The position numbers and the translations under genes are program-made. DNA of 64,000 nucleotides. Source: Bdellovibrionales bacterium (lineage in GTDB: Bacteria > Bdellovibrionota > Bdellovibrionia > Bdellovibrionales > UBA1609). Positions 2,949 through 23,886 of this stretch are shown here, in pieces. Positions within the stretch are counted from its first letter, which is position 1; every line of letters begins with the position of its first letter. The DNA is taken from positions 610,142-674,141 of the forward strand of contig OZ244719.1 of the NCBI GenBank assembly GCA_965219095.1, read 5' to 3'. Under the pieces are notes generated by a model, which did not search any database, was not told the origin of the DNA, and worked only from the letters and a program-made list of their open reading frames with translations.

Positions 2949-3845
2949 ATGATGAAGTTAGATCAATTGAGCTATTTTTTGGAAACAGCACGACATGAGC
3001 ATATTGGAAAGGCCTCAAAGATATTAGCTATCAGTCCCAGTGCTATAAGCCATAGCCTTTCTTGTTTGCAAGAGGAGTTAGGACAAGCTCTTTTTAAGAA
3101 AAGAGGGAAGAGAATCTTTCTAACCAGTCATGGTGAACTTTTAAAAAAAAGAGCTTTTGAGATTCTTACTCATGTAGAGAAAGTAAAAGAGGAGGTTTCG
3201 TCAGATCATGTTCATTTATCGGGACATTATCGATTGGCAGCTAGTCATATGCTCTGCTCTCATATTTTAACTCCAGCTTGGAGTCAGATTCAAAATCAGA
3301 ACTCTAAAATAACAGCAGAAATTTATACAAGAAGATCTTCCGAAGTTCTTAAAGGTATACTGGATGGCGAGTATAACTTGGGTTTATGTTTTAGTCCTCA
3401 GGAACATCCAGATGTTGAAATGATTCGTATTTTAAAGGGTGATCTTTTAATTTTTGCAAGGAAAAATCATCCAGTTTTCAAGGATTCTAAAGTACAACTG
3501 AAGAGAATTACAGAATATCCAGCTGTTTTACCAAAATCTTTTAGTGGCATTGAAATTTGTGAAACTCATCCTGCATTTAAAAGGTTCGATTTAATTCCTC
3601 ATGTGGATTGCATGTTTGATAGTTATGAGATTGCTTTGAGAAAAATACTCTCATCAAATTCTTGGAGCCTTATGCCGGACTTTATGATTCAATATGCACA
3701 CAAGAAAATTAAACCCATTAAAGTTCCTAGAGGTTGGGATGCTATGTACAATATTTCAATTGTTTATCCTAAAAACAGACTTTTGACAAAAGCACTTATG
3801 CAAGTAGTAGAGTTAATTAAGGTACAACTTTTAGCAGTGAAGTAG
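2949..3845 (+). CDS. LysR-family transcriptional regulator
   Basis: N-terminal HTH (KASKILAISPSAISHSLSCLQEELGQALF) plus substrate-binding domain, 298 aa. Confidence 0.95.
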   Translation: MMKLDQLSYFLETARHEHIGKASKILAISPSAISHSLSCLQEELGQALFKKRGKRIFLTSHGELLKKRAFEILTHVEKVKEEVSSDHVHLSGHYRLAASHMLCSHILTPAWSQIQNQNSKITAEIYTRRSSEVLKGILDGEYNLGLCFSPQEHPDVEMIRILKGDLLIFARKNHPVFKDSKVQLKRITEYPAVLPKSFSGIEICETHPAFKRFDLIPHVDCMFDSYEIALRKILSSNSWSLMPDFMIQYAHKKIKPIKVPRGWDAMYNISIVYPKNRLLTKALMQVVELIKVQLLAVK

Positions 3846-3971
3846 AGGATGTCCGTAGTTCCGTTGAAGTTTGCAAAAGAAGCTCTCTTCAAGATAAGTT
3901 TTGAAGTAAAAAATTCAGGCCAATAGAAATGACACACATAAACTTTGATTCCTTCTCCCTATACCTTCAGT

Positions 3972-4157
3972 TCAAAAAGAAATTGCCAATCTTATGGAGA
4001 AGTGTTTTTTTTGATAGACAAATTTTACAGGAGTTTTATATTGCAGTGCTGAATGAAGGTGTTCTACGTTGTAAAAACCGTCAGTCCACTCAAAAATTTT
4101 CATTTCAGCTTTCTTCAAGGAGGAAAATGTTTTAAGGCCGAGTTTTCGTTTAAGCAA
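3972..4157 (-). pseudogene. IS3-type integrase-core C-terminal remnant
   Basis: IFEWTDGFYNVEHLHSALQYKTP resembles the FYNxxRxHSxLxYxTP motif. Confidence 0.55.
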
Positions 4158-4546
4158 GGTAAAAAAGCCTTCACTGTGTATGTTATCATAAAGGTTTCCG
4201 TTTCTAGAACAGCTGAATAAGTCCTAAACTTTTTAGTATTTTTCTAAATTTTGTGCAAATATACTGAACATCAGAGTAAGCAGTTACGATTTTTCAAGTT
4301 CTTTCATAAGAGACTTGTTGGAGGGAGTAGAAAAACATTTGTTTTTACTGTATTTTAATGAAATCAGCAATTCAATGATAAAGCAGGTCTTGTAATTTAA
4401 ATTGTGTAGTGTGTAAGCAAAGATAATACAATGCACTAGGAATACTAAAAACATCTTATTGCGTTTATAAATGTAGATATGTTACCTATTTTTTTTCTTG
4501 TTTACTTTGCAACTCAAATATTAAAATCTATTGATGAGAGGTATTT

Positions 4547-7500
4547 TTGATGAATGAAGGAAATGAATTCGTAAGTCCAATTGCCATTGATCTTGGTGCT
4601 CAGAATACAGGCGTTTATTTTGCTCACTATCCAAAAGGTAGTGAATTAAGTATTTTAAAAAATGAAGACACTAAGGAGGGTAAAGTGTATGTTTTGGAGA
4701 AAAATTCATATACTTTGCTTATGGCTAATAGAACAGCAAAACGTCATCAGAGGCGATGTTATGATCGCCGGAAAATGGCAAAACGTCTATTTAGGTTAAT
4801 ATGGGAAAAGCATTTCGGATTCCCATGGGATAAAGATGTCCAACAAACAATTAGTTTCTTGCTCAATCGCAGAGGCTTTAGCTTTTTAACAGAAGAATAT
4901 GATCCTGAAATCTTAAGCCAATTTCCTAAAGAAGCATTTGAAAAGTTGCCAGAAGAACTAAAGCAAGAAGTTATACAGAATGACAACAGCACATATGATT
5001 TTACAAGTGCGATTCGGCATTGGATAGCGAAAGAACAAGTTAAAGAAAAGTATGAAGCTATAAATAAAAAACCAAAAGAAATTAAAGAAAAGTATGAAGC
5101 TATAAATAAAAAACCAAAAGAAATTAAAGAAAAGTATGAAACTATAAATAAAAAACCAAAAGAAATTAAAGAAATTAACAGAGAGCTATATCTAATTACA
5201 TGTACTGAAAAGTTGAAAAATTATTGCCTATTACGCAAGGAAGGAAAAGAGATAACAGATGGAAAAACAAAAAAGAAAGATACTACTTTCAAAGCATCTA
5301 GATGGTTGCTGGGTGAGTGGCAACAACGATTAAAAATACAAGGATTACCTGACGACAACAACAATGAGATCAATATAGTAAAGTTTCTGAATGAAACAAC
5401 ACCAGAACAAGTTAAAAAAATTTATGATACTATCCACCTTTACTCTCCTTCCCCTCATATCAAGAAAAAAGAACTAAAAAATTCAGAGTGGTACTTTAAT
5501 GCTGAAAAATTCAACCAAGAGGAAAACTTTGTAACTGTTGATGGTGAGCCAGACGAAAAAACTCATATTCACCACCTTGCATTCGCCTTATACAAAACCA
5601 ATGAAGAACTCACCTCTGGTAATCGTCATCGTACTAAATACTTTAAAGAAGTTCGTGAGATATTAATAAAAACAGATCACTCTCACAACTATTTGAAAAA
5701 AATCTGTACAAAGTTGCAATCTGGCGACTTTAGAGAGCTAACAGTAGACAGCCTGACCAAGCTTATTGGGCATATAAGCAATTTAGAGCTTAAACCTCTC
5801 CGAAAATATTTTAATAACGAGAAACATAAAACAAAAGATATTTGGGATGAAAAAATCCTAAATGAGATATTTGAAAATTGGATATTGAATGAGTGGAGGG
5901 TTGGAGAAAAAGACAAAGATAAATCTGATAATAGTAGCTTTTCTTACAAAGAGCTCAGAGAACTTTGGTCTAAAAAAGCTAATTCAGTAGTTAATTTTTG
6001 GCTGAATACTGAGCCTGAGTATACCACCCCCCCCTATCAAGATAACAATAATCGTCGGCCCCCTAGATGTCAAAGTTTGATTCTTAATGTTGAGTTTCTT
6101 GATAGCAAATATCCAAACTGGAAAAAATGGCTTGATAAATTAAAAGGATTAAAATCCGTCCAAAAGTATCTCGATGATTATGCAGATAACTTAAGGGAGT
6201 TAAAAAGCGGTAAGGGAAACTCTTATTTTTATAAATCTAAGGCAGGAAATTTACTTGTCAATTCTGGTCGCAGAAACATGGAAGAACTCGAGTCACGCAT
6301 TATGCAATTTATCTTTGACAGAGTCAAAGATAAAGATCCCCTTAGTCTCAACGAAATTTACAGTTATGCCAAAAAAATTAGACAAAACATTCATAAAACA
6401 AATGATAAAGGCATTAATAATTCAATAGTTGAAACAAAAAATAACTTAGAAAAGTCAATAGAAAACAGTGCTTTGCCGGATGATATGAAAATTAACCCAA
6501 ACTATGATAGAGATGATTTGTTTCCAAAAGACAGTTTTCTGCATTTAATCTGTAAATACTATAAGAATCGTCAGCGTGCTAGAGAAGGGCGTATTTTCAT
6601 TCATCCTGAATACCGTTCTGTCAAAGATCGTGGCTATGAAAACACTAAACGCTTCGACAATAAAAACAACCTATTAACTTATTGTAACCATAAGCCTCGT
6701 CAAAAGCGTTATCAGATTTTCGAGGATTTAGCCAGTGTATTACGAATTTCCCCTCTAGATCTGAAGCGGGTTGTTAATAAAAAACAAGGGAAAGACGAAA
6801 GTGATAAATTATTTAAATGGTTAAACAGTATCGATTCTTTGGAAAAAAATTGCGATCGAGCGTCTGAAGAACAGAAAGAACGCAAAGGACGTTTAAAGTC
6901 AGATATCCAGGGCATCTTTGGGTTGATATATCACAGAAAGAAAAATGAAAATCCATCTAAAAAAGAAATCGGAAATATTCTTAAAAATTCTAAAGTTAAA
7001 GATCCGCAAAAATTATATAATTTTTGTAAAAGGGCTAAGGAGCGTTGTCTAAATTTAACAACCTTTGGTTTATATGATGAATCAAGACAACAACAATGGG
7101 AAGATGATTTAAATAAAAATCCGGCTACTGCTGTTTATTTTCTCTCACAAATCAATAATATTGTCAAGGAGCGTAGTGGTAATGCCAAGACTTGTGCGGT
7201 ATGCAGTATGGATAATGCACAACGTATGCAGATCGCTGATACTATGGTTCATATTGCTAAAGCTCAACGGTTGCCAGCCATACCAACTCGCATTATTGAT
7301 GGCGCTGTTATGCGTATGGCTCGTATTGTTGGTGGTGCTATTGCTGATGATAAGTGGGAGAGGATTGGGAGAGAACTTAAATCAGATAAAAGGGTTTGCG
7401 TTCCTATTATCATTGAATCTAATCAGTTTGAGTTTGAACCTTCCAGAGAGGAACTAGTAAAATCACAAAGAATTCAAAAAAGAAGGGGAAAAGTCCCGGA

Positions 7501-9658
7501 CCCTAATCAAAGAGATCAAAGAGATCAGATTTTCAAATCTAAGGAAGAACGTATCAAGGAATCCAGTAAAGAGATATGCCCTTACACCGGGGAAAAGATC
7601 AGTAGTCATCATGGTGAAATTGATCATATAATACCTAGAACCTCTGAATGGGGCATTCTAAATGATGAATCAAATTTAATTTATGCGAGTAAAGAAGGTA
7701 ATAGACAAAAAAGTAACAAAATGTATTCACTAAAAGACTTAAAATCACAATATAAAGAAAAAATTTTTAGAACTAAAAATGATGATATAGAACAATGGAT
7801 TATTAATCAGATCTGGGACAAAGAAAGCAATAAATTTATATTTGGCAAATATCGAAATTTTTCTAACCTTACCATTGATCAACAAATTGCTTTTCGGCAC
7901 GCTTTATTCCTTAATGAAGAGCATCCCTTAAGAGGTAAGGTCATTAACGCTATAAATAATATAAACCGGACCCTTGTCAATGGAACACAGCGCTATTTTT
8001 CAGAAGTATTAGCAAATAATCTTTATAAAAAAGCCAAAAGAATTAGAAAAGAACATTTGTTATCATTTGATTACTATGAGGTAGATGCTTATTCTAATAG
8101 TGGAAATAATATTTATGATTTGCGCAGGAACTATGTTGAGGGCGAACATGAGGTAATTTCTAAATACAAAAAGGGGAAAGAGGTCCAAAAGCCTTATTCA
8201 CATTTGATAGACGCTCAACTTTCCTTTGCCTTAGCTGCTAGTGATCATCGTAATAGAGGAGGGCTTGGTATAGAAATAAGTGATGAAATTAATATGTGGT
8301 TTTTTGACAAGGATACAGGAGAAGTTCTCAAAAATTTATTTGACACTATACATGTGTCTGATGAGGGTTTTAAGCCAGAAGAATTAAATCGTAAGAAACC
8401 AAATGAAAGTTTTTGTTCTCATCGTGCGTTTACAAGAGATATGTTTTATGCTGACCGTTATCTCCCTGTTCTCTTAAAACTTGAGAGTGGAAAAGTTCAG
8501 GTAAAAATTGGCTTTGATTGGAGTAATAGTGTTAAATTAGGAATAGACACACCTAAAGGGGCAGAAAAATATTTACTAGATATCATTGATTTGCTTCCTG
8601 TATGCAATAGAACTGAACTTTTGGAGGATAAGGAATATTCTAGCTTGGAAAAATTATTTTCAGAAATAGAACAGATTTCATATTTTAATAAACAACGGCA
8701 AGAAAAAGGCTACTGTTGTATAACAGTGAACAGATCAAAACTACATGATCATTGGAGAGAAAAATACAATAGCAAAACTGGGGATTCATTTGAAGAAAAG
8801 AAATTCGTTTATAAGTATTTACATTATAAAACAGAAAAGGTGAAGCTTGATAAGCCTGAAGATTTATCAAAAAAACTGTGCGATATAAAAAAGTTTGAAG
8901 TTGAAGTTGAGAGGAAACCAATAACATTGCCAGTAAAAAAACAATGGCAAGATTGTTGGGATGCCTGGGAAAGAGAAAAAGATTTATTTAAAGATAAAGA
9001 TTTTAAAGAGTTTTTGAAAAATTATTTTAAACCACCACATACACTGTCTCACCAAAAGGTAAGAAAAGTTTTTTCCCTACCAACACTTTCTAAAGAAGGC
9101 AAGATATTAATGCGGAGAAAATCTTGGACAGGAAATTACACTTATCAGATTGTTAACGATTCTGACTCTAGGAAGGATGACAATAAACCTAATGTACCGA
9201 TAAGGAAACAAAATGGAGAACGGGGTAAAAAGCTTGCAGAGTGGGCTAAGTCAGAAAATATTATCAAGTTTAAGGACGGCTACGAGGACGGAAAACCAAT
9301 CAATCCTACTCAATGGTATAAGGTTGATAAAAAATCTTCTAAATTGCCAGACGAAATTGAGGATCTTTGGTATCGGATAAAGGATTCAACCGCTCCACTT
9401 ATAGCTATAAAGTTAGCACAAGATGGTGAAAATATTTCTAATGCCGAATTTATGGAAAATCCAATGTGTAAGCACGGTTTTAGAAAAAACGATAAACTTA
9501 AAAAATCTAAAAAGGATGTTCGTAATGAGTTTTTTGAAAAAGAGATAAAAACAAAAAAACGTGGCGCCATCATTCCTTACGAGGGGTCGAAGTATAACAA
9601 AGAGATGCAGAAGGCATTCAAAGAAGCAAGCTTAGTTGGCAAACTACCACTACCATGA
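4547..9658 (+). CDS. cas9: Type II-B CRISPR nuclease Cas9 (Csx12/FnCas9-like); ATG at 4550 is an alternative start
   Basis: RuvC-I IAIDLGAQNTG, bridge helix RTAKRHQRR, RuvC-II IIIESN, HNH EIDHIIPR..N...GN, RuvC-III SHLIDA, Zn-finger Cys (RCQS, YCNH, CAVC); followed by cas1-cas2-cas4. Confidence 0.97.
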   Translation: MMNEGNEFVSPIAIDLGAQNTGVYFAHYPKGSELSILKNEDTKEGKVYVLEKNSYTLLMANRTAKRHQRRCYDRRKMAKRLFRLIWEKHFGFPWDKDVQQTISFLLNRRGFSFLTEEYDPEILSQFPKEAFEKLPEELKQEVIQNDNSTYDFTSAIRHWIAKEQVKEKYEAINKKPKEIKEKYEAINKKPKEIKEKYETINKKPKEIKEINRELYLITCTEKLKNYCLLRKEGKEITDGKTKKKDTTFKASRWLLGEWQQRLKIQGLPDDNNNEINIVKFLNETTPEQVKKIYDTIHLYSPSPHIKKKELKNSEWYFNAEKFNQEENFVTVDGEPDEKTHIHHLAFALYKTNEELTSGNRHRTKYFKEVREILIKTDHSHNYLKKICTKLQSGDFRELTVDSLTKLIGHISNLELKPLRKYFNNEKHKTKDIWDEKILNEIFENWILNEWRVGEKDKDKSDNSSFSYKELRELWSKKANSVVNFWLNTEPEYTTPPYQDNNNRRPPRCQSLILNVEFLDSKYPNWKKWLDKLKGLKSVQKYLDDYADNLRELKSGKGNSYFYKSKAGNLLVNSGRRNMEELESRIMQFIFDRVKDKDPLSLNEIYSYAKKIRQNIHKTNDKGINNSIVETKNNLEKSIENSALPDDMKINPNYDRDDLFPKDSFLHLICKYYKNRQRAREGRIFIHPEYRSVKDRGYENTKRFDNKNNLLTYCNHKPRQKRYQIFEDLASVLRISPLDLKRVVNKKQGKDESDKLFKWLNSIDSLEKNCDRASEEQKERKGRLKSDIQGIFGLIYHRKKNENPSKKEIGNILKNSKVKDPQKLYNFCKRAKERCLNLTTFGLYDESRQQQWEDDLNKNPATAVYFLSQINNIVKERSGNAKTCAVCSMDNAQRMQIADTMVHIAKAQRLPAIPTRIIDGAVMRMARIVGGAIADDKWERIGRELKSDKRVCVPIIIESNQFEFEPSREELVKSQRIQKRRGKVPDPNQRDQRDQIFKSKEERIKESSKEICPYTGEKISSHHGEIDHIIPRTSEWGILNDESNLIYASKEGNRQKSNKMYSLKDLKSQYKEKIFRTKNDDIEQWIINQIWDKESNKFIFGKYRNFSNLTIDQQIAFRHALFLNEEHPLRGKVINAINNINRTLVNGTQRYFSEVLANNLYKKAKRIRKEHLLSFDYYEVDAYSNSGNNIYDLRRNYVEGEHEVISKYKKGKEVQKPYSHLIDAQLSFALAASDHRNRGGLGIEISDEINMWFFDKDTGEVLKNLFDTIHVSDEGFKPEELNRKKPNESFCSHRAFTRDMFYADRYLPVLLKLESGKVQVKIGFDWSNSVKLGIDTPKGAEKYLLDIIDLLPVCNRTELLEDKEYSSLEKLFSEIEQISYFNKQRQEKGYCCITVNRSKLHDHWREKYNSKTGDSFEEKKFVYKYLHYKTEKVKLDKPEDLSKKLCDIKKFEVEVERKPITLPVKKQWQDCWDAWEREKDLFKDKDFKEFLKNYFKPPHTLSHQKVRKVFSLPTLSKEGKILMRRKSWTGNYTYQIVNDSDSRKDDNKPNVPIRKQNGERGKKLAEWAKSENIIKFKDGYEDGKPINPTQWYKVDKKSSKLPDEIEDLWYRIKDSTAPLIAIKLAQDGENISNAEFMENPMCKHGFRKNDKLKKSKKDVRNEFFEKEIKTKKRGAIIPYEGSKYNKEMQKAFKEASLVGKLPLP
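5040..5174 (+). repeat. In-frame 42-bp tandem repeat x3 in cas9 (KEKYE[A/T]INKKPKEI)
   Basis: Units at 5040, 5082 and 5124 (one substitution in the third), plus a 9-bp partial. Confidence 0.95.
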
Positions 9659-10611
9659 GACATCTTGTTATTGCAGACTATGGAACATTTTTAGGATTAG
9701 ATAATCAACGCCTTGCTATTCGGCAAAAGGAAGAAGTTCAATATTATCCTCTGAACCGTCTTTGCACTATATCCGTTGCTAAAAATGGGATCAGTTTTTC
9801 TAGTGATTTAGTGGAATCGTTAAGTGCACGAGGAATTAAATTGTTTTTTCTTGATTTTCGTGGTGTTCCTCACTCAGCAATTTTAGGACAATCTCAACAT
9901 GGCGTTGTTGCAGTAAGGATGGCACAAGTGGCTTTTTGCCAGAGCGATACAATGACGCTTTCTAGAAAAATTATTTCTGCAAAAATTAAAAATCAACGTG
10001 CAGTACTAAACTACTTAGATAAGTACCACAGAAATACATTATTGAAGTCTGCATCTGAGGAACTATTACGAAACTCAACTGAAGCCCAACGTGCTAAAAA
10101 TATTGAAACTTTATTAGGCTTAGAGGGAGCTAGTGCTAATGCTTATTTTCAAAGCTTACGACAAGCTCAGTTGTTCTCATCTTCTTTTAAAAAACGTGAG
10201 GGAAGGGGGAGTCAGGAAATCAATAATTCAATGCTTAACTTAGGTTATGCGATATTAAGTAGCTATGTTCTTAATGCGATCGTTAATGCCGGGTTAGAAC
10301 CTTATCTTGGTATTATACACACCATTAGACCTGGCAAAATGGCATTGGTATTGGATATAATGGAGGAATACCGAGCATGGGTTGTTGATCGTATTGTAAT
10401 CAAATTGCGTTCACAGAGTAAAGGAATGACAGTTCTGAGTACAGATCTAAAAAAAGTACTAATTAAGGAAATACAAAATACATGTGCTAAAAGATACCTT
10501 TACAAACAAAAGAAGCATAAATTAGAGCATATTATTCAAAGACAAGTGTATCGATTATGTGGTCACTTTTATGGTGAAAAAAGTTATAAACCTTATCTAT
10601 TTAAGTGGTGA
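9655..10611 (+). CDS. cas1: CRISPR integrase Cas1
   Basis: LLGLEG..A..YF, NSMLNLGY, GIIH, LVLDIMEEYR motifs; overlaps the cas9 stop (ATGA). Confidence 0.97.
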   Translation: MRHLVIADYGTFLGLDNQRLAIRQKEEVQYYPLNRLCTISVAKNGISFSSDLVESLSARGIKLFFLDFRGVPHSAILGQSQHGVVAVRMAQVAFCQSDTMTLSRKIISAKIKNQRAVLNYLDKYHRNTLLKSASEELLRNSTEAQRAKNIETLLGLEGASANAYFQSLRQAQLFSSSFKKREGRGSQEINNSMLNLGYAILSSYVLNAIVNAGLEPYLGIIHTIRPGKMALVLDIMEEYRAWVVDRIVIKLRSQSKGMTVLSTDLKKVLIKEIQNTCAKRYLYKQKKHKLEHIIQRQVYRLCGHFYGEKSYKPYLFKW

Positions 10612-10620
10612 TATATATAA

Positions 10621-10923
10621 ATGAAAAGCTATCTGTTACGACAAGAATATCTGGTCAGTTACGATATACAAGACAACAAGATACGCCATCGTATCTTTAA
10701 AGAATTAAATAGATATGGTCTCACATCAGTTCAAAAGTCTGTTTTTTGGGGTTATTTAACTTTTGCAGAACTAGAAGCAGTAAGACGTCATTTAGAGTAT
10801 AACCTTAGGAGGACAGATAAGGCTTTTATAACACATACTAACTTCAATGGTCGAGGGCGTAGTTATTTTGTAGGTCATGAGAAAAATGATTTTGAAGATT
10901 GGGAAGAAACCTATGTCATCTAA
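10621..10923 (+). CDS. cas2: Cas2
   Basis: YLVSYDIQDNKIR...VQKSVF. Confidence 0.97.
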   Translation: MKSYLLRQEYLVSYDIQDNKIRHRIFKELNRYGLTSVQKSVFWGYLTFAELEAVRRHLEYNLRRTDKAFITHTNFNGRGRSYFVGHEKNDFEDWEETYVI

Positions 10924-11494
10924 AATGGAAGTTCCGGTAAACTTAATACGTCAATGGTGTTATTGCCCTAGAAAAGTTTATTACTTTGAATTGACAGATT
11001 TTAAAGTAGAACATCCATCTTGGATAAAACAGGGGAGAAAATTTCACAAGCTAGAAGAGAAGTTGTGGCGACGCCGGAATGTTTCTAGGTTTAATTTAAA
11101 AAATGGCCATACTTATCACAATTTAATGATGAGAGATAGCGACAAGGGACTCCATGGTATTGTTGATATGGCAATTGAAACTGAGGCAGCAGTTTACGCT
11201 GTCGAGTTTAAAATTTCAGCAAGGATTAGAAAAAGAGGTGACATCTTACAATTGACAGCTTATTCTATGCTATTAGAAAAACACTTTAATAAACCAAGTT
11301 CAGTTGGATTTCTTTTAGGCAAGGGGAGGGTTTTACACACAATTGATATTGACGAAGATAAACGTAAAGAAGTGATGGAAGTAGTAGATAAAATAAGACA
11401 GATACTGCAGAGAGGATTAAAACCAGAATCCAGCGCTAGCGTAGCTCAATGTTGTTCCTGTGAGTACTTCAATTTTTGTAATGACCGCCTGTAA
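10913..11494 (+). CDS. cas4: Cas4 (RecB-like nuclease with 4Fe-4S cysteines); longest ORF begins at 10877
   Basis: YCPR, GIVD, EFK, QLTAY, CxxCxYxxxC. Confidence 0.95.
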   Translation: MSSKMEVPVNLIRQWCYCPRKVYYFELTDFKVEHPSWIKQGRKFHKLEEKLWRRRNVSRFNLKNGHTYHNLMMRDSDKGLHGIVDMAIETEAAVYAVEFKISARIRKRGDILQLTAYSMLLEKHFNKPSSVGFLLGKGRVLHTIDIDEDKRKEVMEVVDKIRQILQRGLKPESSASVAQCCSCEYFNFCNDRL

Positions 11495-11548
11495 TAAGAA
11501 ACATCCTCCTCAGTAGGAGTCAAGAGGCTGTTAAGAGACCAACTTACT
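11495..11548. repeat. Dispersed ~52-bp element, copy B, directly after the cas4 stop
   Basis: taagaaacatcctcctcagtaggagtcaagaggctgttaagagaccaacttact. Confidence 0.75.
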
Positions 11549-11578
11549 AAAGGTCAAGATTAGGGAGAGATTTTAGAC

Positions 11579-11610
11579 ACAAAAAAACCGCTTTCAAGCG
11601 GTTTTTTTGT
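11579..11610. terminator. Bidirectional intrinsic terminator (cas operon on +, tracrRNA on -)
   Basis: acaaaaaaaccgct-ttca-agcggtttttttgt, perfect 14-bp arms with T-runs on both strands. Confidence 0.9.
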
Positions 11611-11705
11611 TTAAAATGAAAGCAGACGTGATAAAGATATCAGAGGTCCGTTCAAAATGCTTTTAGATGATTACAGTGCATTAGTAATCTGCTATACTTA
11701 TGGTG
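11579..11705 (-). ncRNA. tracrRNA (type II-B); 5' end uncertain, could extend to about 11730
   Basis: Minus strand cataagtatagcagattactaatgcactgtaatc (anti-repeat, 11669-11702) then atctaaaagcattttgaacggacctctg...cacgtctg, matching the recalled F. novicida tracrRNA core; ends at a terminator. Confidence 0.92.
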
Positions 11706-11712
11706 ATGTTAT

Positions 11713-11774
11713 CACAAAAAACTTCTTTCGCAAAATATTATATTTCGGTGCAAAGACTTCGTTTGCGAAAGAAG
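11713..11774 (-). terminator. Probable terminator of minus-strand CRISPR transcripts
   Basis: 13-bp arms cttctttcgcaaa (11722-11734) / tttgcgaaagaag (11762-11774), followed on minus by T6. Confidence 0.6.
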
Positions 11775-11823
11775 AGACGCCTTTTTTTCTCTAATTACCA
11801 GAAATATAAGAGAAATTTAGGGT

Positions 11824-13463
11824 GTTTCATTAGTATAACAAATTACTTAGCAACTGAAACCAATCTTCTAAGTACAGGGTACACAGACACAAAACACTGA
11901 GTCAGGTTTCATTAGTATAACAAATTACTTAGCAACTGAAACTATCTTCTAAGCTTTATACAGTATATTTACATAGACTCAGTTTCATTAGTATAACAAA
12001 TTACTTAGCAACTGAAACGTCCTAATTAGCCCTTTTTGTAGTCTTGGTTTCTTTTACAGAGTTTCATTAGTATAACAAATTACTTAGCAACTGAAACTCT
12101 TCGTCAGGAAAACCAAGACAGGCATCACCTAGTTTCATTAGTATAACAAATTACTTAGCAACTGAAACTAATCACGCTCACGTGTTTGAGGGAGATTTTA
12201 AGTTTCATTAGTATAACAAATTACTTAGCAACTGAAACTCCCAGCCTTTAGACGTGTTAGGGAAGTCAGCTTCGTTTCATTAGTATAACAAATTACTTAG
12301 CAACTGAAACATCGTAGCTTCCCCTTTGCCAGGCTTTAAAATTTGGTTTCATTAGTATAACAAATTACTTAGCAACTGAAACAGATAACTTGGTCAGAAC
12401 TGGAAGACATGGTAGAGTTTCATTAGTATAACAAATTACTTAGCAACTGAAACCTTAATTGTTCTCATATTTACTCTTCTCTTTCTTTGTTTCATTAGTA
12501 TAACAAATTACTTAGCAACTGAAACTCTTCAGCGGGAAAACCAAGACAGGCATCACCTAGTTTCATTAGTATAACAAATTACTTAGCAACTGAAACCTAA
12601 TTGTGTAAAATAAATCGTTCCTATTACAGGAGTTTCATTAGTATAACAAATTACTTAGCAACTGAAACAGTAAAGTTCGAAGACGATAAGAAAGGAGTAA
12701 TAAGTTTCATTAGTATAACAAATTACTTAGCAACTGAAACGTGTAACAGTCTTTGCAATTTTCAGTCGAGTTACGTTTCATTAGTATAACAAATTACTTA
12801 GCAACTGAAACCAGCACTTACTAGTAACCAGCACTGACTACATATAAGTTTCATTAGTATAACAAATTACTTAGCAACTGAAACCACATCGTTATGTTCA
12901 AATTTTTTGTTTGTTATTGGTTTCATTAGTATAACAAATTACTTAGCAACTGAAACATGTCCAAAGGACGGGGCATTTTACTAACTTTGCAGTTTCATTA
13001 GTATAACAAATTACTTAGCAACTGAAACGCCAAGTTCTAAAATTGTTGGCTTAACAAATTTAGAGTTTCATTAGTATAACAAATTACTTAGCAACTGAAA
13101 CATGTCCAAAGGACGGGGCATTTTACTAACTTTGCAGTTTCATTAGTATAACAAATTACTTAGCAACTGAAACGCCAAGTTCTAAAATTGTTGGCTTAAC
13201 AAATTTAGAGTTTCATTAGTATAACAAATTACTTAGCAACTGAAACATGTCCAAAGGACGGGGCATTTTACTAACTTTGCAGTTTCATTAGTATAACAAA
13301 TTACTTAGCAACTGAAACGCCAAGTTCTAAAATTGTTGGCTTAACAAATTTAGAGTTTCATTAGTATAACAAATTACTTAGCAACTGAAACCTATAAACT
13401 TCATCTTGAATTTTTTTATTCATATTGTTTCATCAGTACAACAAATTACTTAGCAAGTAAAGT
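11824..13463 (-). CRISPR. CRISPR array: 22 identical 37-bp repeats, 1 degenerate terminal repeat (13427-13463), 22 spacers of 33-45 bp; crRNA sense is the minus strand
   Basis: Plus-strand repeat gtttcattagtataacaaattacttagcaactgaaac; its reverse complement GTTTCAGTTGCT.. resembles the Francisella repeat and pairs with the tracr anti-repeat. Confidence 0.98.
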
Positions 13464-13730
13464 GTACTAACGGTTAAATTGTCAAAGAACACACCCTTCA
13501 TTTGAAGAGTCTATAGTATTTTGTACTTTAGCATTGATTTTTTCTTGTTTCAAATAGTTTTTAGTATTTTTTATCATATTTTCTGAGGCAAATTTTTCAT
13601 TTATTCTGTATTCTTTCTCTTCAAAAATTGAGCTTATGAAAATTTCAGAAAATTGGTGTTAGGAATCCGTCTTTTTTCGCATTTCGTGCTAAATCTAATG
13701 AAGTGTGCATTTATCCCTCAAAATAACTGC

Positions 13731-13791
13731 AACTCGATCATTACCGCTCTATACAAAATCGTCCTTTGTATAGAGCGGTAATGGTCGAGTT
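13731..13791. repeat. Long inverted repeat (27-bp arms, one G-T pair, 7-nt loop)
   Basis: aactcgatcattaccgctctatacaaa-atcgtcc-tttgtatagagcggtaatggtcgagtt. Confidence 0.9.
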
Positions 13792-13983
13792 ACCAATAAC
13801 CTCTAAATTTTCTAAGTGAGAAAAACATATTTATGATGAACAAACTCTACTTTTAGTTGCTTTTGGAGCAATATGTTAATTTTTTAGATGGGCAGAAGAT
13901 AAGTTTGACAAAATTGGTAAAAAGTAATAACTTTACTTGAGAAAAATATAGAGTAAAAGATCATAAATAATAAGGGGGATATT

Positions 13984-14916
13984 ATGATAAGAACTGTTTT
14001 TATAATGGTTGTGGTTTTAGCCTTATCTTTTCAGAAAGATGTTTTTGCTTCTGCCATTCTAAGTCAAGATAGTGTAAATCAAGACAGCATAAAAAAAATT
14101 ACGGAGTACTTGGCAAATTACAAGTCTGAGTACTGGGAATTCTCTTCGCAAGCCGAATCTCTTATCCCTATTCGACCACCACAGGTTGTTATAGGTTCTC
14201 CTATTGATCCAAACCATTACTTTGCTAAAAATTCTGTTTTGATCATTTCGGTTAGGGAGGAAGGGACGGGTATTTGTTCTGGGTCTATTCTTACAAAACA
14301 TTTCATACTTACGGCAGCCCATTGTCTTGAATCTGTTAACGAAGCTTATATTTTTACAAACAATCTTATTTCTAGGAAAGATATTATCAAGGAGATCAAA
14401 AAAGGAATAGATGGAAAGTTTTTTAAGGTTACAAAAAACTCCTTTGAAATTAGTCCATGTTATCATCCCAGTAATAATCTTGCATGTGATATTGCAATGA
14501 TTTTTGTTCCTGCAGCTTTAAATAAACATGATGCACAAGTCACTTCTGTAAAGCTTGCTAGTTCTGGGTCTGGGCCTTATATTTTGACTGGTTATGGGAC
14601 GCCACCGACAACAAACAGGCCGTCTAGCGATGAGAATGAGGCATGGGTATTAATATTAAGAGGAGTAGAAGTTTCCCTCTTTTATAAGGACCATGCTATT
14701 ATTTATACCCATAGAAGAAGATTTGTTAGGTACGTTGGTGTTGTAAAAGGTGACTCAGGGGGCCCCATGTACGAAACAAGGGATGGCAGTTATGTGCAAG
14801 TAGGAGTCAATGTTGCTATGTCTACTCAGCATAGTATTTCAGTAAGAGTCGATAGACATCTATCTTGGATGCAAAGCACTATAGAGAGTCGCATGGTACC
14901 CCTAGCGTTGGATTAA
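13984..14916 (+). CDS. Secreted trypsin-like (S1) serine protease
   Basis: Signal peptide; CSGS, TAAHC, DIA, GDSGGP catalytic-triad motifs. Confidence 0.9.
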   Translation: MIRTVFIMVVVLALSFQKDVFASAILSQDSVNQDSIKKITEYLANYKSEYWEFSSQAESLIPIRPPQVVIGSPIDPNHYFAKNSVLIISVREEGTGICSGSILTKHFILTAAHCLESVNEAYIFTNNLISRKDIIKEIKKGIDGKFFKVTKNSFEISPCYHPSNNLACDIAMIFVPAALNKHDAQVTSVKLASSGSGPYILTGYGTPPTTNRPSSDENEAWVLILRGVEVSLFYKDHAIIYTHRRRFVRYVGVVKGDSGGPMYETRDGSYVQVGVNVAMSTQHSISVRVDRHLSWMQSTIESRMVPLALD

Positions 14917-14960
14917 GTTTCAGTTGCTAGCTAGAGGGGTATTTGTTATGTTAATAAATC
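14917..14960 (+). repeat. Orphan degenerate CRISPR repeat in crRNA sense, abutting the protease stop codon
   Basis: gtttcagttgcta (13/13 to the repeat 5' end) + gctagaggggt (replaces agta) + atttgttatgttaataaatc (16/20 to the repeat 3' end). Confidence 0.7.
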
Positions 14961-15445
14961 TGGTGGTTCCTTTTTGGTTCTTTCGTTAGGGCAGTCAGTA
15001 TGGTTTTTCATTCCTTATATATAAAGGCAAATAAAAAAGAAAGAGTTTTTTCATACCTTCCTCTAAATTGTGAAAGTCTCATTTTGGCTAAGTCCCAAAA
15101 ACTTTTAACTCCATTGATATGGTTTTTAACTGTTTTTTCAGCCTTCGAGAATTCATTTTTTCCGTGTGAACTTGATAATGCTTTTTAAAACTCATATTAA
15201 GCCCGTCATAGGCTTTAAAGACATCTGTAAAGAAATTTTCTTAAAGTCAGTTGAAAAAAAAGTTTTTTATATCACAATAAAGGGTGATATGTTTTTAAAA
15301 AATATAGAAAAAGACAGACGATTCCCAAAGCTATTCAGACATCTATTCAAGCGACTTTCAAAGGAATTCAAGAACTGACAAAAGCTCAAAAAGAGACAGT
15401 GGTTGTAGAAGTGAAGATCGCATTAAGCTCTAATATAATGGAAAT

Positions 15446-16807
15446 CTAAGGCTTCAGGTAAGGGGACCATTTAGGAGTTTCATAATGGTGACGATCAAAA
15501 GTGATTCTTCTTACATACCCACCATCTGATGACATAAGATAAAGTTGTTTGTTTGTTGTATGCCGATCGCTGGCAAACACAATGAAACGACCATCAGGAG
15601 AAAAAGAAGGTGATGCATGATGAGCTGCTCTTCCGTTTTTCTTTACATAGCTTGTTAGTTTCTTAATTTGCTTTGTAGCCAGAGCTAAAGAATAAATGTC
15701 ATAATGAGCTTTTTGGTAGCTAGCAAACACAATGGTTTTGCCGTCAGGAGACCATACAGGATTAGAATTGTAACGACCAGCAAAAGTTAGTCTTTCGACT
15801 CTTCTTCTAGCTAAAATATCGGCCATATAAATCATAGGTTTTCCTCCTCTATTGGAAGAAAAAACCAAATGTCTTCCATCAGAGGAAATGTCTGGCTCTA
15901 AATTCAAAGTATGAGAAGGTCTTGTGATGATGGGGTTGAGGGTTCGAGTTCTTAAGTTCATTCTGTAAATATGAGCTCCTCCTCTTTTCGAGAGTGTGTA
16001 GTAAATGTACTTTCCTGTGGGATCAAAAACGGCTCCTGAATTCATACCTTTATGATGGGAGATTAATTTTGTTTGTTTTGTTTTTAAATCTAATAAAAAA
16101 AGATCAGGATTAAAAACTCCAGCTCTTTTATGTTTCACGTAAGCTGTAAAAGCAATTTTATCTCCCTTTGGAGACCAAGCAGGAGACAAGGAAAGAGATC
16201 TAAATTTTGTACTTGTAGCTTTTTCAAGGTTCTCTCCGTTCCAGTCCAAGGTATAAATTCCTTTTTTTCCTCTTACTTTCACTGTAGCAACTATTTTTGT
16301 AGAAAAAATACTTTTCTTTCCTGTGAGAGCTTTAATAAGATCATCACAAAAACGATCTGCTATTTTTTTAAAATGAGTTTGTTTGACTTTGTAGATTCTT
16401 CCTAAGGCTAATTTTCCAGAGCTTACATAATAAGCATAAATTTCTAATTGTAATTGATCGCCCCTTGTTCTATAAGTTCCTCTGATAAGTAGATGTGCTT
16501 TAAGCACACGCCAGCTCTCAAAATCAAAACCACGTCTATCTTCCGATAAAGGTCTAGGACTGACTTTTCTTACATCTTCTATAAAACTTTTAGGATCAAT
16601 CAAACGAAAGAACCCTGAAATATAAAGATGGCTCCTGATTATTTTGTAAACCTTTTCTCCGTAATGACTTCTTCTTCCTTGATTGTTGAACTTAGGTAAG
16701 GCCAAAGAGGCCTGGCCTTTTTTAGCATGGCCTACATTAATAGATATTTTTTCACAAACAGCCTGAAACGAAAAACAAAAGAAGAATAAAAACGCAATAT
16801 ATTTTAT
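15446..16807 (-). CDS. tolB: TolB beta-propeller protein; N-terminus extended to a putative ATA start
   Basis: PD40 repeats (SPAWSPKG, PVWSPDG, PSFSPDG); in-frame signal peptide upstream of the TTG at 16705; last gene of tolQRA. Confidence 0.9.
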   Translation of the reverse strand: MKYIAFLFFFCFSFQAVCEKISINVGHAKKGQASLALPKFNNQGRRSHYGEKVYKIIRSHLYISGFFRLIDPKSFIEDVRKVSPRPLSEDRRGFDFESWRVLKAHLLIRGTYRTRGDQLQLEIYAYYVSSGKLALGRIYKVKQTHFKKIADRFCDDLIKALTGKKSIFSTKIVATVKVRGKKGIYTLDWNGENLEKATSTKFRSLSLSPAWSPKGDKIAFTAYVKHKRAGVFNPDLFLLDLKTKQTKLISHHKGMNSGAVFDPTGKYIYYTLSKRGGAHIYRMNLRTRTLNPIITRPSHTLNLEPDISSDGRHLVFSSNRGGKPMIYMADILARRRVERLTFAGRYNSNPVWSPDGKTIVFASYQKAHYDIYSLALATKQIKKLTSYVKKNGRAAHHASPSFSPDGRFIVFASDRHTTNKQLYLMSSDGGYVRRITFDRHHYETPKWSPYLKP

Positions 16808-19552: not shown

Positions 19553-21812
19553 TCATTTGATTTCCTTACAATAGTGAGTTCTTACAAAAGAATTAAAATG
19601 TTTAAAAGAATCAAAGGACAGATAGCTACTATAATCGGAAAATGTTTGTAATATAGTATGGGAGATTCTATCGCGCACTAGTCTTACGAGATTTTCATCT
19701 TCCTTTTCTAAGTTTTGACTTACTCTGCAGTTTGTCTCATTTTCCTCCTTAGGAAGAGAGGATGGAAAATACTCTTGAAAAAACTTACCTATATTATTCA
19801 AAGTAATCCACAGGATGTAGTCTTGACTCTCAAAATGGCTTGGTAGGTGTTCTTGTTTTTCTACAAAGCCACAAATGTAATTTTTAAAGAAAGCACCATC
19901 TTTCAGAGGATCTGATGAAAAATGAGAGTAGTCTTCTTGTTGTGAGTAGCCTTTTTCTACATAGGCCACAAAATCTCTTATAGAGGAGTTAATGTTTCTT
20001 TCAAATTCCATGAAGCACTGATCTCCATCCTCTCTTTTATTTATTTTTTTGTAAAGAGGTTTTAGTACATAGTCCATGTAGGCATCTATTTCCACCATGT
20101 AAGACAGAGCTGCTGTTGTTTTCTTATAACGAGAAAGAGTATGATCCTCAAAAGGAATTTGTCTTTCGTCTTTGTTTTCATATTCAAAAAGACTTAGATT
20201 ATCCTTGCTTTCTCCAAAAAGATGAGGAATGACCATTTTATTTAAAAAATTTTGGTAGTCATCAAAATGAGTTTCAAAAAAAGGCCTAAAAGCTACTTCT
20301 GAAATATGCTTTTGCCACCAACAATTAAATCGCCTTTCAATATAATCATTGGTATTACCAAAATTACTTGGATCTGGGTTAACAAAATCACAGCCTTCTA
20401 TGAAACCTGACTCTAGTTTTGCAACAAAAGGCTTTAGCTTATCAAGACCGTTATGGAGAAGTTTTTGAGAAAGATTGTTGAAATCATATTTTTTGTGGTT
20501 TAATTTCATAGACATAATCGATCTTTTCAGTCCTTTGCAGAAAAGCTTTCCTCCCTCAACAATCTTAGGGGGCAGAAACTCCTTTCTTATAGAAGTTGTG
20601 TCCACGAGAGTGTCTTCAGGCTTGACTCCGCAGAGCATGCTAAAGAAAGCTTTTTCTGAGAAAAAATCTGTTTCAAATTGAGCCATATTAAAACCTTTTA
20701 TAGAATCCTTCATGGATTTAATTCCTGTAAGCTGAAACAAAAGAGAATCATCTAAATTTTCTGATAATTCTGATAAATTGGGTAAAAGTTCAGAAGAGGC
20801 CTTATCCTTGTCTATAGGATGCCAATCTTTCATTTTTTTATAATAATCATCATGCATGTACTGTAAAGTTTGCTCTGCAGGATGAGAGGTAAAGTGGGTG
20901 GAAAAAGACTGTCCAAAACCATTTGATGCTACAAGAAATTTTCGAAAGATACTTTCATCAATTTTTTGAAATGAAAATTTCATTCTTGACTGAACAATAG
21001 GATAATCTAATATTTCATAGAGTTCATAAAATAGACAATGCTCTGAGAAAAAATCCTCTTTTTGACAAGCTTGAAACAGAGCTTCTCGATTTTGAATTCT
21101 TTCTAAGATTTCAAAAGCTAAAAGCCAATCTTCTTTGCTTTCAGAAGAAAGGTATTTTTCTAAGCTTTCAATTTCTTTTATTTTTACAAGTTGTTTTTGA
21201 GGAAGTTTTCGAGATTCAGGAAAATTTCGTATAAAAAGATTCTTTTTATGAGTCTTAAAAGGGGTTTGTTTATTTCTCCAACGACATTCATTAGCCTTTA
21301 AATACTCTCTTGCTATTTTAATACGGCACTCAGTTTCGTAAATATGAGGATAAGAGATATTTATTTGTATTTCAGAAAAAGACTCTTTATTTACACATGA
21401 AGTCCTTACTTTCTTTTCAAAAAACTGCTCTTTCATTCTAGTGGCTATAGGGAAAAGTTTTTTTGCTTCTTCTATGGTCATTTTAAAAGACAAGTCTTTA
21501 GAGTCCTCGCTTGTTTTTCTTACAGAGCAAGGGTTGCCCTCTCCTCCGTCGTTTTCCCTCAGAAGTTGTAGTGGAAAATAAGACATTTTTTCAGGTACCA
21601 TATCCATATCTTGATACCTTGCTTCAGATTCTCTTAATCGATCCTCTCGTATTTTAATGACAATTTCTGTATAGGCTTTTTTAGTAAACTCAGCTCTATC
21701 CATAGACCAAACAAGATCTTTTTCCCATTCTGCTCTTCTTATGTACAACATAGCTGTCATATAATCGATCCAAGCTTTTGAGGCCTCTGAAAATTCTTTT
21801 ATAGCTTGAGCT
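19553..21812 (-). pseudogene. Large hypothetical protein, 5'-truncated at an inverted-duplication junction
   Basis: 735-aa ORF whose frame stays open upstream of ATG 21760 up to the junction at about 21812. Confidence 0.6.
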
Positions 21813-22477
21813 TTTTCTGCAAAGGACTGAAAAGATCGATTATGTCTATGAAATTAAACCACAAAAAATATGATTTCAACAATCTTTCTCAAAAACTTCT
21901 CCATAACGGTCTTGATAAGCTAAAGCCTTTTGTTGCAAAACTAGAGTCAGGTTTCATAGAAGGCTGTGATTTTGTTAACCCAGATCCAAGTAATTTTGGT
22001 AATACCAATGATTATATTGAAAGGCGATTTAATTGTTGGTGGCAAAAGCATATTTCAGAAGTAGCTTTTAGGCCTTTTTTTGAAACTCATTTTGATGACT
22101 ACCAAAATTTTTTAAATAAAATGGTCATTCCTCATCTTTTTGGAGAAAGCAAGGATAATCTAAGTCTTTTTGAATATGAAAACAAAGACGAAAGACAAAT
22201 TCCTTTTGAGGATCATACTCTTTCTCGTTATAAGAAAACAACAGCAGCTCTGTCTTACATGGTGGAAATAGATGCCTACATGGACTATGTACTAAAACCT
22301 CTTTACAAAAAAATAAATAAAAGAGAGGATGGAGATCAGTGCTTCATGGAATTTGAAAGAAACATTAACTCCTCTATAAGAGATTTTGTGGCCTATGTAG
22401 AAAAAGGCTACTCACAACAAGAAGACTACTCTCATTTTTCATCAGATCCTCTGAAAGATGGTGCTTTCTTTAAAAAT
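21813..22477 (+). repeat. 665-bp inverted duplicate of 19880-20544
   Basis: ORF 21806-22534 reproduces FCKGLKRS...DGAFFKN of the 735-aa protein; both segments measure 665 bp. Confidence 0.95.
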
Positions 22478-22995: not shown

Positions 22996-23828
22996 TAGGC
23001 GTGTTGAATATTTATAAAGATTGTAAAAAGCTCATAACAAAGGGAGGTGTTATGTTAAGAAAAGTTTTAACAGATTCTATGTGGAAGGATCTGGAAGCTA
23101 TTATAAGAGAGAAAGGCTGTTATCATTCAGCAAACAATAGAAATGTTATGGAAGCAATTTTATGGAAATTACGCACAGGCAGTCCGTGGCGTGATATTCC
23201 TGAACAGTTCTGTCCTTGGAAGAGAGCATATAATCGCTTTAATAGGTGGGCACAAAAAGGGTTATGGAATGATTTTTTTTTACTTTACAAGAAGAAGTTG
23301 ATACAGAGTGGGTGTCCATCGACGGAAGTTACGTATCGGTTCATCAGCATGCTAGTGGAGCTCGGCGTGGAGAAAGTCGTGCTGTGGGAAAATCTAGAGG
23401 TGGATCCACAACAAAAATACACATGGCCTCTGATGCGCATGGAAATCCGCTCTGTTTTAAAATCACTGGGAGTGAAGTGCACGACAGTCAAGTTGCAGGT
23501 GATTTAATGATGAGTTTCATAGTGAGTATTTGATTGCTGACAAGGCCTATGACTCGGATGAGATACGAGATAAGGCTCGTAGTAAGAAGGTAAAGCCTGT
23601 GATACCGAGACGAAAAAATAGCAAAAAGAAAAATAAAGATTTTGATCGTCATATCTATAAATCTCGACATCAGATAGAAAACCTTTTTGCTCGTCTTAAG
23701 CATTTTAGAGGTATTGCTACTCGATTTGAAAAGCTTGCTAGAAATTTCAAAGCTATCTATCTATAGCATATATGTTTATTTGGCTTAAACTTCAAAGTAA
23801 AGGTCCAGTCAAATGAGGACAGGCTCTA
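22996..23828 (+). mobile_element. IS5-family element with frameshifted, partly deleted transposase (23052-23766)
   Basis: AILWKLRTGSPWRDIP, SIDGSYV..HQH, ADKAYDS, RHQIENLFARLKHFRGIATRFEK in three frames; ends approximate. Confidence 0.85.
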
Positions 23829-23886
23829 GTCGAATGTGAAAAATTGACAAAAGCCTGGGATTTTGTCAATTTTTCACGTTCGACTA
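23827..23886. repeat. Long inverted repeat (26-bp arms, one G-T pair) downstream of priA, possible terminator
   Basis: tagtcgaatgtgaaaaattgacaaaa-gcctggga-ttttgtcaatttttcacgttcgacta. Confidence 0.85.

Follow-up and report, generated by a model that had tools for sequence, protein, structure and literature searches.

What a CRISPR repeat is doing directly behind the stop codon of a protease gene, and whether it could turn the end of the protease mRNA into a Cas9 guide, is the question raised by a 64,000-nt stretch of a Bdellovibrionales genome (hereafter the window). A complete type II-B CRISPR-Cas locus lies within it, comprising cas9, cas1, cas2, cas4, a tracrRNA candidate and an array. The type II-B cas9 gene (4547..9658, +) was recognized by the Pfam domains Csx12 and HNH_4 and by PDB alignment to FnCas9 (E 1e-114); its product also carries a ~14-aa threefold tandem repeat near residue 165-205. 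The cas1, cas2 and cas4 genes (9655..11494, +) were assigned by Pfam. The tracrRNA candidate (11580..11708, −; ends approximate) contains an anti-repeat at ~11672-11703, stem-loops and a terminal hairpin, pairs with the true repeat at −27.2 kcal/mol and is found in the same position in relatives; an Rfam search of the window returned 2 tRNAs only and did not detect it. We take this gene to resemble the F. novicida tracrRNA. It shares the minus strand with the array (11824..13463), which has 23 repeats of 37 nt and 22 spacers, with its old end at the high coordinate. The repeat at that end (13427..13463) is a degenerate first ("extra") repeat with a mutated 5′ handle, and degenerate repeats at the array 5′ end (crRNA sense) are seen in relatives also. 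Among the spacers, the three at the tracr-proximal, probably newest end (11861-12060) are long (45, 39 and 42 nt vs 33-36), two of them having a common 10-nt motif near one end; a spacer pair is tandemly triplicated at 12957-13354, and spacers 12098-12131 and 12526-12559 are variants of one sequence.

The repeat in question, the orphan repeat (14917..14960, +), follows a trypsin-family protease gene (13984..14916, +; Pfam), which encodes 310 aa with a hydrophobic N-terminus and intact His/Asp/Ser motifs and ends in TAA. The layout given by the original prediction was confirmed. Read in crRNA sense, positions 14917-14929, starting with the base after the TAA, reproduce nt 1-13 of the 37-nt repeat; the next 4 nt of the repeat are replaced by 11, and the last 20 nt match at 16. 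Between the element and the last array repeat (13463) there are 1453 nt; as the element runs opposite to the array, the protease mRNA carries it in crRNA sense. All five changes lie beyond the intact 5′ 13 nt, a sparing with a chance of ~0.1, calculated by hand under uniform decay, for an orphan that was itself found via that 13-mer. The 5′ 13-mer has a single occurrence outside the array in the 3.11-Mb genome. A worry that the match might be expected by chance was dispelled by a gapped whole-repeat scan of both strands of the 3.1-Mb genome (6.2 million positions): the orphan reached 22, the degenerate terminal repeat reached 25, and the highest-scoring five of the remaining sites, with the tracr anti-repeat among them, reached 14. 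The orphan is thus the top repeat-like site outside the array in the genome (22 vs a background maximum of 14); the scan found no second repeat downstream of it. Short-read contigs from three of four DNA runs (X1, X2 and X3; X4 was without coverage) bridge the junction with zero differing letters, and the junction is therefore not an assembly error; the runs X1-X4 belong to one study and may include the assembly source. The orphan is a real but damaged copy of the locus's own CRISPR repeat.

The origin of the junction was approached through a protease paralog at G000:C2:1933907 (77% aa identity; dN/dS 0.42). DNA homology to the paralog extends over 971/1162 nt (84%) and ends exactly one base before the orphan repeat. 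Because the homology stops precisely at the preceding base, the orphan repeat marks a DNA junction, which on this sequence comparison we judge to be a recombination junction. That the stop codon falls at the junction is due only to a 4-nt indel ~20 nt upstream that separates the two copies; in the paralog the frame stays open for 5 more codons. In its CRISPR-less locus (L001, contig C2), the paralog lies directly behind a LysR gene (3638-4663) that is 96.5% identical to the LysR regulator upstream of cas9 in the window (2949..3845, +; Pfam). Homology to L001 ends at 3913 and restarts at 13785, which sets the boundaries of a type II-B CRISPR-Cas module (3914..13784) located between LysR and protease here and absent at the paralogous locus. 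The LysR-protease pair, contiguous at the paralog, thus appears to be split here by the cas module, which may have been gained or lost. The right module boundary (13785) is spanned by a 27-bp inverted repeat (13731..13791).

Further traces mark this as a much rearranged region. A third LysR copy (G000:C2:463403-467108) has a 77-aa Cas9 HNH fragment 2.6 kb away. On the 3′ side of the paralog (L001 5850-6523), 125 nt resemble the LysR 3′ flank (1/300 shuffles as good), and a DUF2442 gene pair follows the paralog, DUF2442 being also present inside the II-B modules L017, L054 and L067. A simple single inversion was rejected, as it would flip the protease relative to LysR, whose relative orientation is unchanged. 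The sequence 3′ of the orphan repeat (14961..15228) is unique: comparison with the leader, the tracr gene, the region upstream of cas9 and 13464-13983 revealed no likeness, and neither a donor spacer nor a further array was found downstream of the orphan. A dispersed-repeat fragment with up to 11 other copies follows (15229..15397), which is probably an IS remnant. A search for protease orthologs gave weak matches only, in 8/40 relatives (best E 1.6e-6), and no close relative with the protease; the window genome is the sole member of its genus among the genomes searched.

The 11-for-4 replacement inside the orphan was examined next to its surroundings. The inserted segment (14930..14941, +) is a near-exact reverse complement of 14897-14906 and forms the 3′ arm of a hairpin, whose 5′ arm (14896..14906, +) is inside the last protease codons and the would-be spacer; the pairing originally claimed between the insert and the would-be spacer was reproduced with pair probabilities of 0.5-0.97. 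Microhomologies of 4 nt and 3 nt sit at the expected start and return points of a fold-back, and the insert is a candidate fold-back (template-switch) product plus short slippage. The hairpin sits right at the stop codon and has a U-rich tract behind it; it folds at −18.3 kcal/mol with a z-score of −1.65 (10/200 shuffles fold equally well). In a crude terminator and promoter scan, the hairpin was not among the terminators listed and no consensus promoter was detected ≤330 nt upstream of the orphan.

Pairing of the orphan with the tracrRNA candidate was modelled by folding. The isolated orphan-tracr duplex reaches −14.7 kcal/mol vs −27.2 kcal/mol for the true repeat. The 12 distal pairs with 4 G-U that had been counted are right by hand against the anti-repeat, the MFE duplex containing 10 of them plus a bulge, and the distal 10-12 nt of the orphan are predicted to remain free for tracrRNA with ~0.6 probability. 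The accompanying idea that distal changes keep wobble pairing survived in part: the 12 pairs with 4 G-U can form, but the distal changes give no sign of selection, since those that keep G-U are simple transitions and another, the third within the duplex, disrupts a G-C pair. When upstream mRNA was included (20, 30, 37 or 60 nt), handle-tracrRNA pairing of the orphan was 0.00, in models that leave out ribosomes and Cas9 chaperoning; it was 0.53 for the orphan trimmed to a 10-nt guide. An intact repeat behind the same upstream RNA gave handle pairing of 0.85 at all five lengths, at about −20 kcal/mol, compared with −3 to −6 kcal/mol for the observed orphan with 20-60 nt upstream. Of the array repeats, 21/22 gave 0.80-0.85. 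The difference between the intact repeat (0.85) and the orphan (0.00) indicates that, in the model, it is the later changes, above all the insertion, that turn the element off. Thus, the proposed co-folding with tracrRNA holds for the isolated element or a 10-nt guide, but the handle is buried with ≥20 nt of mRNA.

Possible targets of the would-be spacer were searched in the whole genome. There were 131 sites with ≥8 PAM-proximal matches: one is the orphan's own site, one has 11 nt and is inside an ORF, and five have 10 nt. The longest genome matches of the 18 distinct real spacers are 9-14 nt, and the search therefore did not bear out a target for a short guide, as no PAM-proximal match was above chance. 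NGG flanks none of the six sites of 10-11 nt; it occurs at 35 sites, each matching over 8 nt, and terminal repeats of one IS, presumably IS630-like as judged by its transposase motif, account for 34 of these (8-nt seed + AGG). Of the control 8-mers, 8.7% of the 20,000 sampled from the genome and 2.5% of the 560 permuted ones reached this count. The paralog end matches the would-be spacer at 16/20, with an 8-nt seed and a non-NGG flank. Since FnCas9 Arg1556, which we take to read the third PAM base, aligns to Ala in the window Cas9, NGG is not safe to assume, and the PAM of this Cas9 may be relaxed or different. As for the array itself, no protospacers were seen in its own genome among the matches listed, phages gave one weak match (E 0.5), and none was found in viral contigs for the 1/18 distinct spacers searched. 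The sequence 5′ of the degenerate first repeat (13427-13483, −) has one weak, AGG-flanked 10-nt match, the handle there being mutated; it lies 107 nt upstream of an ORF at G000:C2:1511228, presumably mraY-like.

The orphan was then compared with known systems. The F. novicida scaRNA lies immediately upstream of its array in the same orientation (PMC6199352) and has an 11 bp match to a 5′ UTR (PMC12231574). The orphan resembles it in belonging to a II-B locus with Cas9 and a tracrRNA candidate, in being a degenerate repeat beyond the array's old end and in having a possible short guide. The scaRNA has array-adjacent co-orientation, its own promoter and an 11-bp PAM-adjacent 5′-UTR target, whereas none of these was found for the orphan, which is inverted and 1.45 kb off, has an in-transcript tracr pairing of 0.00 at 20-60 nt (0.53 at 10 nt; model) and offers one 11-nt match in an ORF and five of 10 nt, at chance level, in place of a promoter or 5′-UTR match of ~11 nt. 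A scaRNA-like regulatory guide, as first proposed, was therefore not upheld. The positional analogue of scaRNA in this locus is not the orphan but 13427-13463, with its mutated handle.

A closer likeness is offered by extraneous crRNAs (ecrRNA), which arise from the extra repeat of II-A/II-C arrays; guide hairpins and repeat mutations are two of three ways of muting them described in II-C systems, where the extra-repeat mutations cluster in the first 15 nt (PMC12080349). Like such an extra repeat, the orphan has no acquired spacer, would be transcribed from upstream, and shows both a guide hairpin and tracr-weakening repeat changes. It stands behind non-spacer sequence, namely protease coding DNA homologous to the paralog, from which transcription would read through. 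It differs in being displaced and inverted, with an mRNA end as its upstream RNA, in belonging to II-B, in an intact rather than mutated 5′ handle, and in not being the first repeat of a transcribed array, which is 13427-13463. Thus, on the features tested, the orphan behaves as a muted extra repeat does and falls outside the scaRNA class. In C. jejuni, non-canonical crRNAs from mRNAs depend on chance complementarities and have an unclear physiological role (PMC8224270); the orphan is instead a true repeat copy, with 13 nt identical to the repeat 5′ end in sense to the protease gene, predicted to be buried and so inaccessible to tracrRNA in the model. Standalone repeat units and mini-arrays are already known, and non-conserved, targetless standalone repeats at type III loci are read as degraded repeats (bioRxiv 2023.03.03.530964); the orphan is likewise a single repeat-like sequence near CRISPR-cas, without a second repeat and without a target. 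Phage integration into repeats (bioRxiv 2020.10.09.333658) also joins foreign or host DNA to a repeat. Unlike such recombination-at-array cases, no element or donor spacer is left here, and the partner is a chromosomal gene end.

Repeats outside arrays were also surveyed in relatives. A II-B Cas9 was found in 11/300 other genomes of the order, 10 of which were examined (the fragmented G120 was left out), and repeats outside the main array were present in 6/10 (G203, G236, G031, G124, G066 and G238). They occur in varied places as single copies, as mini-arrays, or as copies split by gene-bearing segments of 0.65-3.5 kb, and such segments, bounded by co-oriented repeats, belong either to the old end of a II-B array or to a mini-array at a distance. 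Some of these orphan repeats have their 5′ end lost or changed. Because they vary in place and some are without a 5′ handle, the orphans in relatives look more like recombination debris than a conserved regulator. Selective 5′-handle retention among orphans was unsupported, as a distal-anchored search found changed or missing 5′ ends. Several other candidates were rejected: seven other GTAATTTGTTATA 13-mers, all copies of one dispersed element; the orphan-like matches of L041, which are a dispersed repeat; the matches of L048 and L049, which are chance 13-mers; and most single matches of a relaxed scan, which are without a repeat tail. Scans for exact repeats and consensus gave no match in metagenome or viral contigs, and the exact 28-mer gave none in genome contigs. 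As side observations, gene-bearing segments between co-oriented repeats (L036 12416-15288, L038 2908-9744 and L064 1232-5325) look giant-spacer- or cassette-like, and in L039 (1507-1543 and 10381) a cas module lies between co-oriented repeats, and in front of each the repeat's 5′ end occurs once more, inverted.

Close joints between repeats and the stop codons of same-strand genes recur in these genomes. In L046 (2001), the TAA of a 128-aa ORF is followed without a gap by an array of five repeats. In L067 (4001), the repeat's first base completes the stop codon of a SnoaL-like gene, and anti-repeat-like, cas1-like and DUF2442 remains come after this gene-end repeat. In L068 (4001) an exonuclease ORF extends 18 nt into the repeat, and in L038 (2871) the repeat begins 4 nt past the stop codon. 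Over 17 genomes, the start of the repeat cluster fell −1 to 0 nt from a stop codon in 2/30 cases and −18 to +4 nt in 4/30; a null from the window genome (0.0034 and 0.041 per position) gives P ~0.005 and ~0.03, values that come from a post hoc test with crude ORFs and related genomes that are not independent. The 30 starts leave out the index case, one 5′-truncated copy and five unconfirmed single hits, and L037, in which a repeat remnant precedes the cluster start, was scored as a miss. Selection against broken genes accounts for joints near gene ends, not for exact ones. A spacer-end bias was rejected as the cause, as only 20/226 regular spacers end in a stop triplet. A literature search, which was not exhaustive, yielded no description of repeats fused to stop codons.

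From the junction and the sequence changes seen in the DNA, and from the folding models, we consider it probable that the orphan is a repeat that was displaced to a recombination junction, would at first have turned the protease mRNA into a source of an extraneous guide, and has since fallen silent. A recombination event would have fused the protease gene end to repeat base 1, removing the gene's old 3′ flank, either by recombination between a spacer and a matching chromosomal site or by Cas1-Cas2 joining a broken DNA end to the repeat. These two routes are the most economical because both yield target-repeat joints at repeat base 1. Spacer-protospacer recombination at CRISPR arrays was reportedly described by Varble et al. 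2019. Read-through of the then intact repeat from the protease mRNA would, as modelled, have given an "extraneous" crRNA guided by the mRNA end. A fold-back insertion, primed and resolved at the short microhomologies, may then have cost four tracr pairs and created a new hairpin burying both guide and handle, and the distal transitions would have weakened the orphan further. Today the orphan is most likely silent, and this silencing may reflect either drift or selection, of which avoidance of self-targeting at the paralog would be one example. Such a scar leaves without account the 2/30 other cluster starts ≤1 nt from a stop codon; decay has spared the 5′ 13 nt, whereas II-C extra repeats mutate in the first 15 nt; and RNA trimmed to 10 nt is still predicted to pair (0.53). 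If the orphan is a silenced scar, it would be a natural record of a repeat landing behind a host gene and being neutralised by one templated mutation, and a warning against scaRNA calls from degenerate repeats alone.

The exact joints in other genomes leave room for a broader process, which we regard as possible yet doubtful: a II-B process, either Cas1-Cas2 end-joining or spacer-guided integration of a mobile module, would join repeats precisely to host stop codons; a new array would then draw both its promoter and its first guide from the host mRNA, and mRNA 3′ ends would become Cas9 guides that are kept, extended or silenced. The window copy would then represent a silenced or short-guide stage, L046 an array-seeding one and L067 a decayed module. 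If the stop-codon joints here and in two other genomes are mechanistic, they would reveal a way in which II-B loci relocate and start new arrays driven by host promoters; they would also supply a natural path by which an mRNA becomes a Cas9 guide, for which chance pairing in Campylobacter is the only precedent so far. It is unlikely that the orphan is instead the remnant of an attachment site, left behind after the loss of a mobile element or mobile II-B module that had used the repeat for site-specific recombination at the gene end. Phages have been shown to integrate into type II-A repeats (bioRxiv 2020.10.09.333658), and the G031 cas module between co-oriented repeats, the module remains behind the gene-end repeat of L067 and near-identical repeats in distant taxa would fit; however, no integrase lies beside the orphan, the stretches upstream of the junctions have no core in common, and the joint falls at repeat base 1, whereas an att core would usually place it within the repeat.

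A working guide, with the protease transcript trimmed to ~10 nt, loaded with tracrRNA on Cas9 and repressing without cutting, appears quite unlikely. The intact 13-nt handle, the 12 distal pairs and the pairing of 0.53 at a 10-nt guide are consistent with it, as are repression by FnCas9 with 11 bp complementarity (PMC12231574) and the acceptance by Cas9 of imperfect partners when the repeat 5′ end pairs (PMC8224270). The handle is, however, predicted to be buried with ≥20 nt of upstream RNA, no promoter-like site lies ≤330 nt upstream, and the longest match elsewhere, 11 nt inside an ORF, is within the range of real spacers (9-14 nt), with none of the six 10-11-nt sites having NGG. The 34 IS terminal-repeat copies with the 8-nt seed and AGG, and the 16/20 paralog end with its 8-nt seed, could be counted for a guide; yet the IS match is short, post hoc, equalled by 2.5-8.7% of control 8-mers and dependent on a doubtful NGG, and the same seed is common to the paralog coding sequence. 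Distinctly improbable is an action on the protease mRNA itself, by which the hairpin and partial duplex would stabilise the 3′ end, terminate transcription weakly or offer a processing site for tracr/RNase III rather than serve as a guide: the stem at the stop codon with its U-rich tract (−18.3 kcal/mol) and the free distal 10-12 nt (~0.6 probability) would suit this role, but 10/200 shuffles fold as well (z-score −1.65), the hairpin is not listed as a terminator, its 5′ arm is in translated codons and the paralog is without it. Chance resemblance can be considered negligible; the genome is AT-rich and a dispersed repeat did give false orphan matches in L041, but no background score among the 6.2 million positions exceeded 14, compared with 22 for the orphan, which moreover lies 1.45 kb from the array and coincides with a homology breakpoint.

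Other features of the window and its genome were recorded. The tolB region (15442-16500) has a second copy, 90% identical, at G000:C2:1431342. A perfect 665-bp inverted duplication (19880-20544 and 21813-22477) lies in two related ORFs of unknown family. Across the whole genome (G000), 80 short-loop hairpins have arms of ≥19/20 nt, among them the inverted repeat at 13731-13791 and another at 23827-23886.
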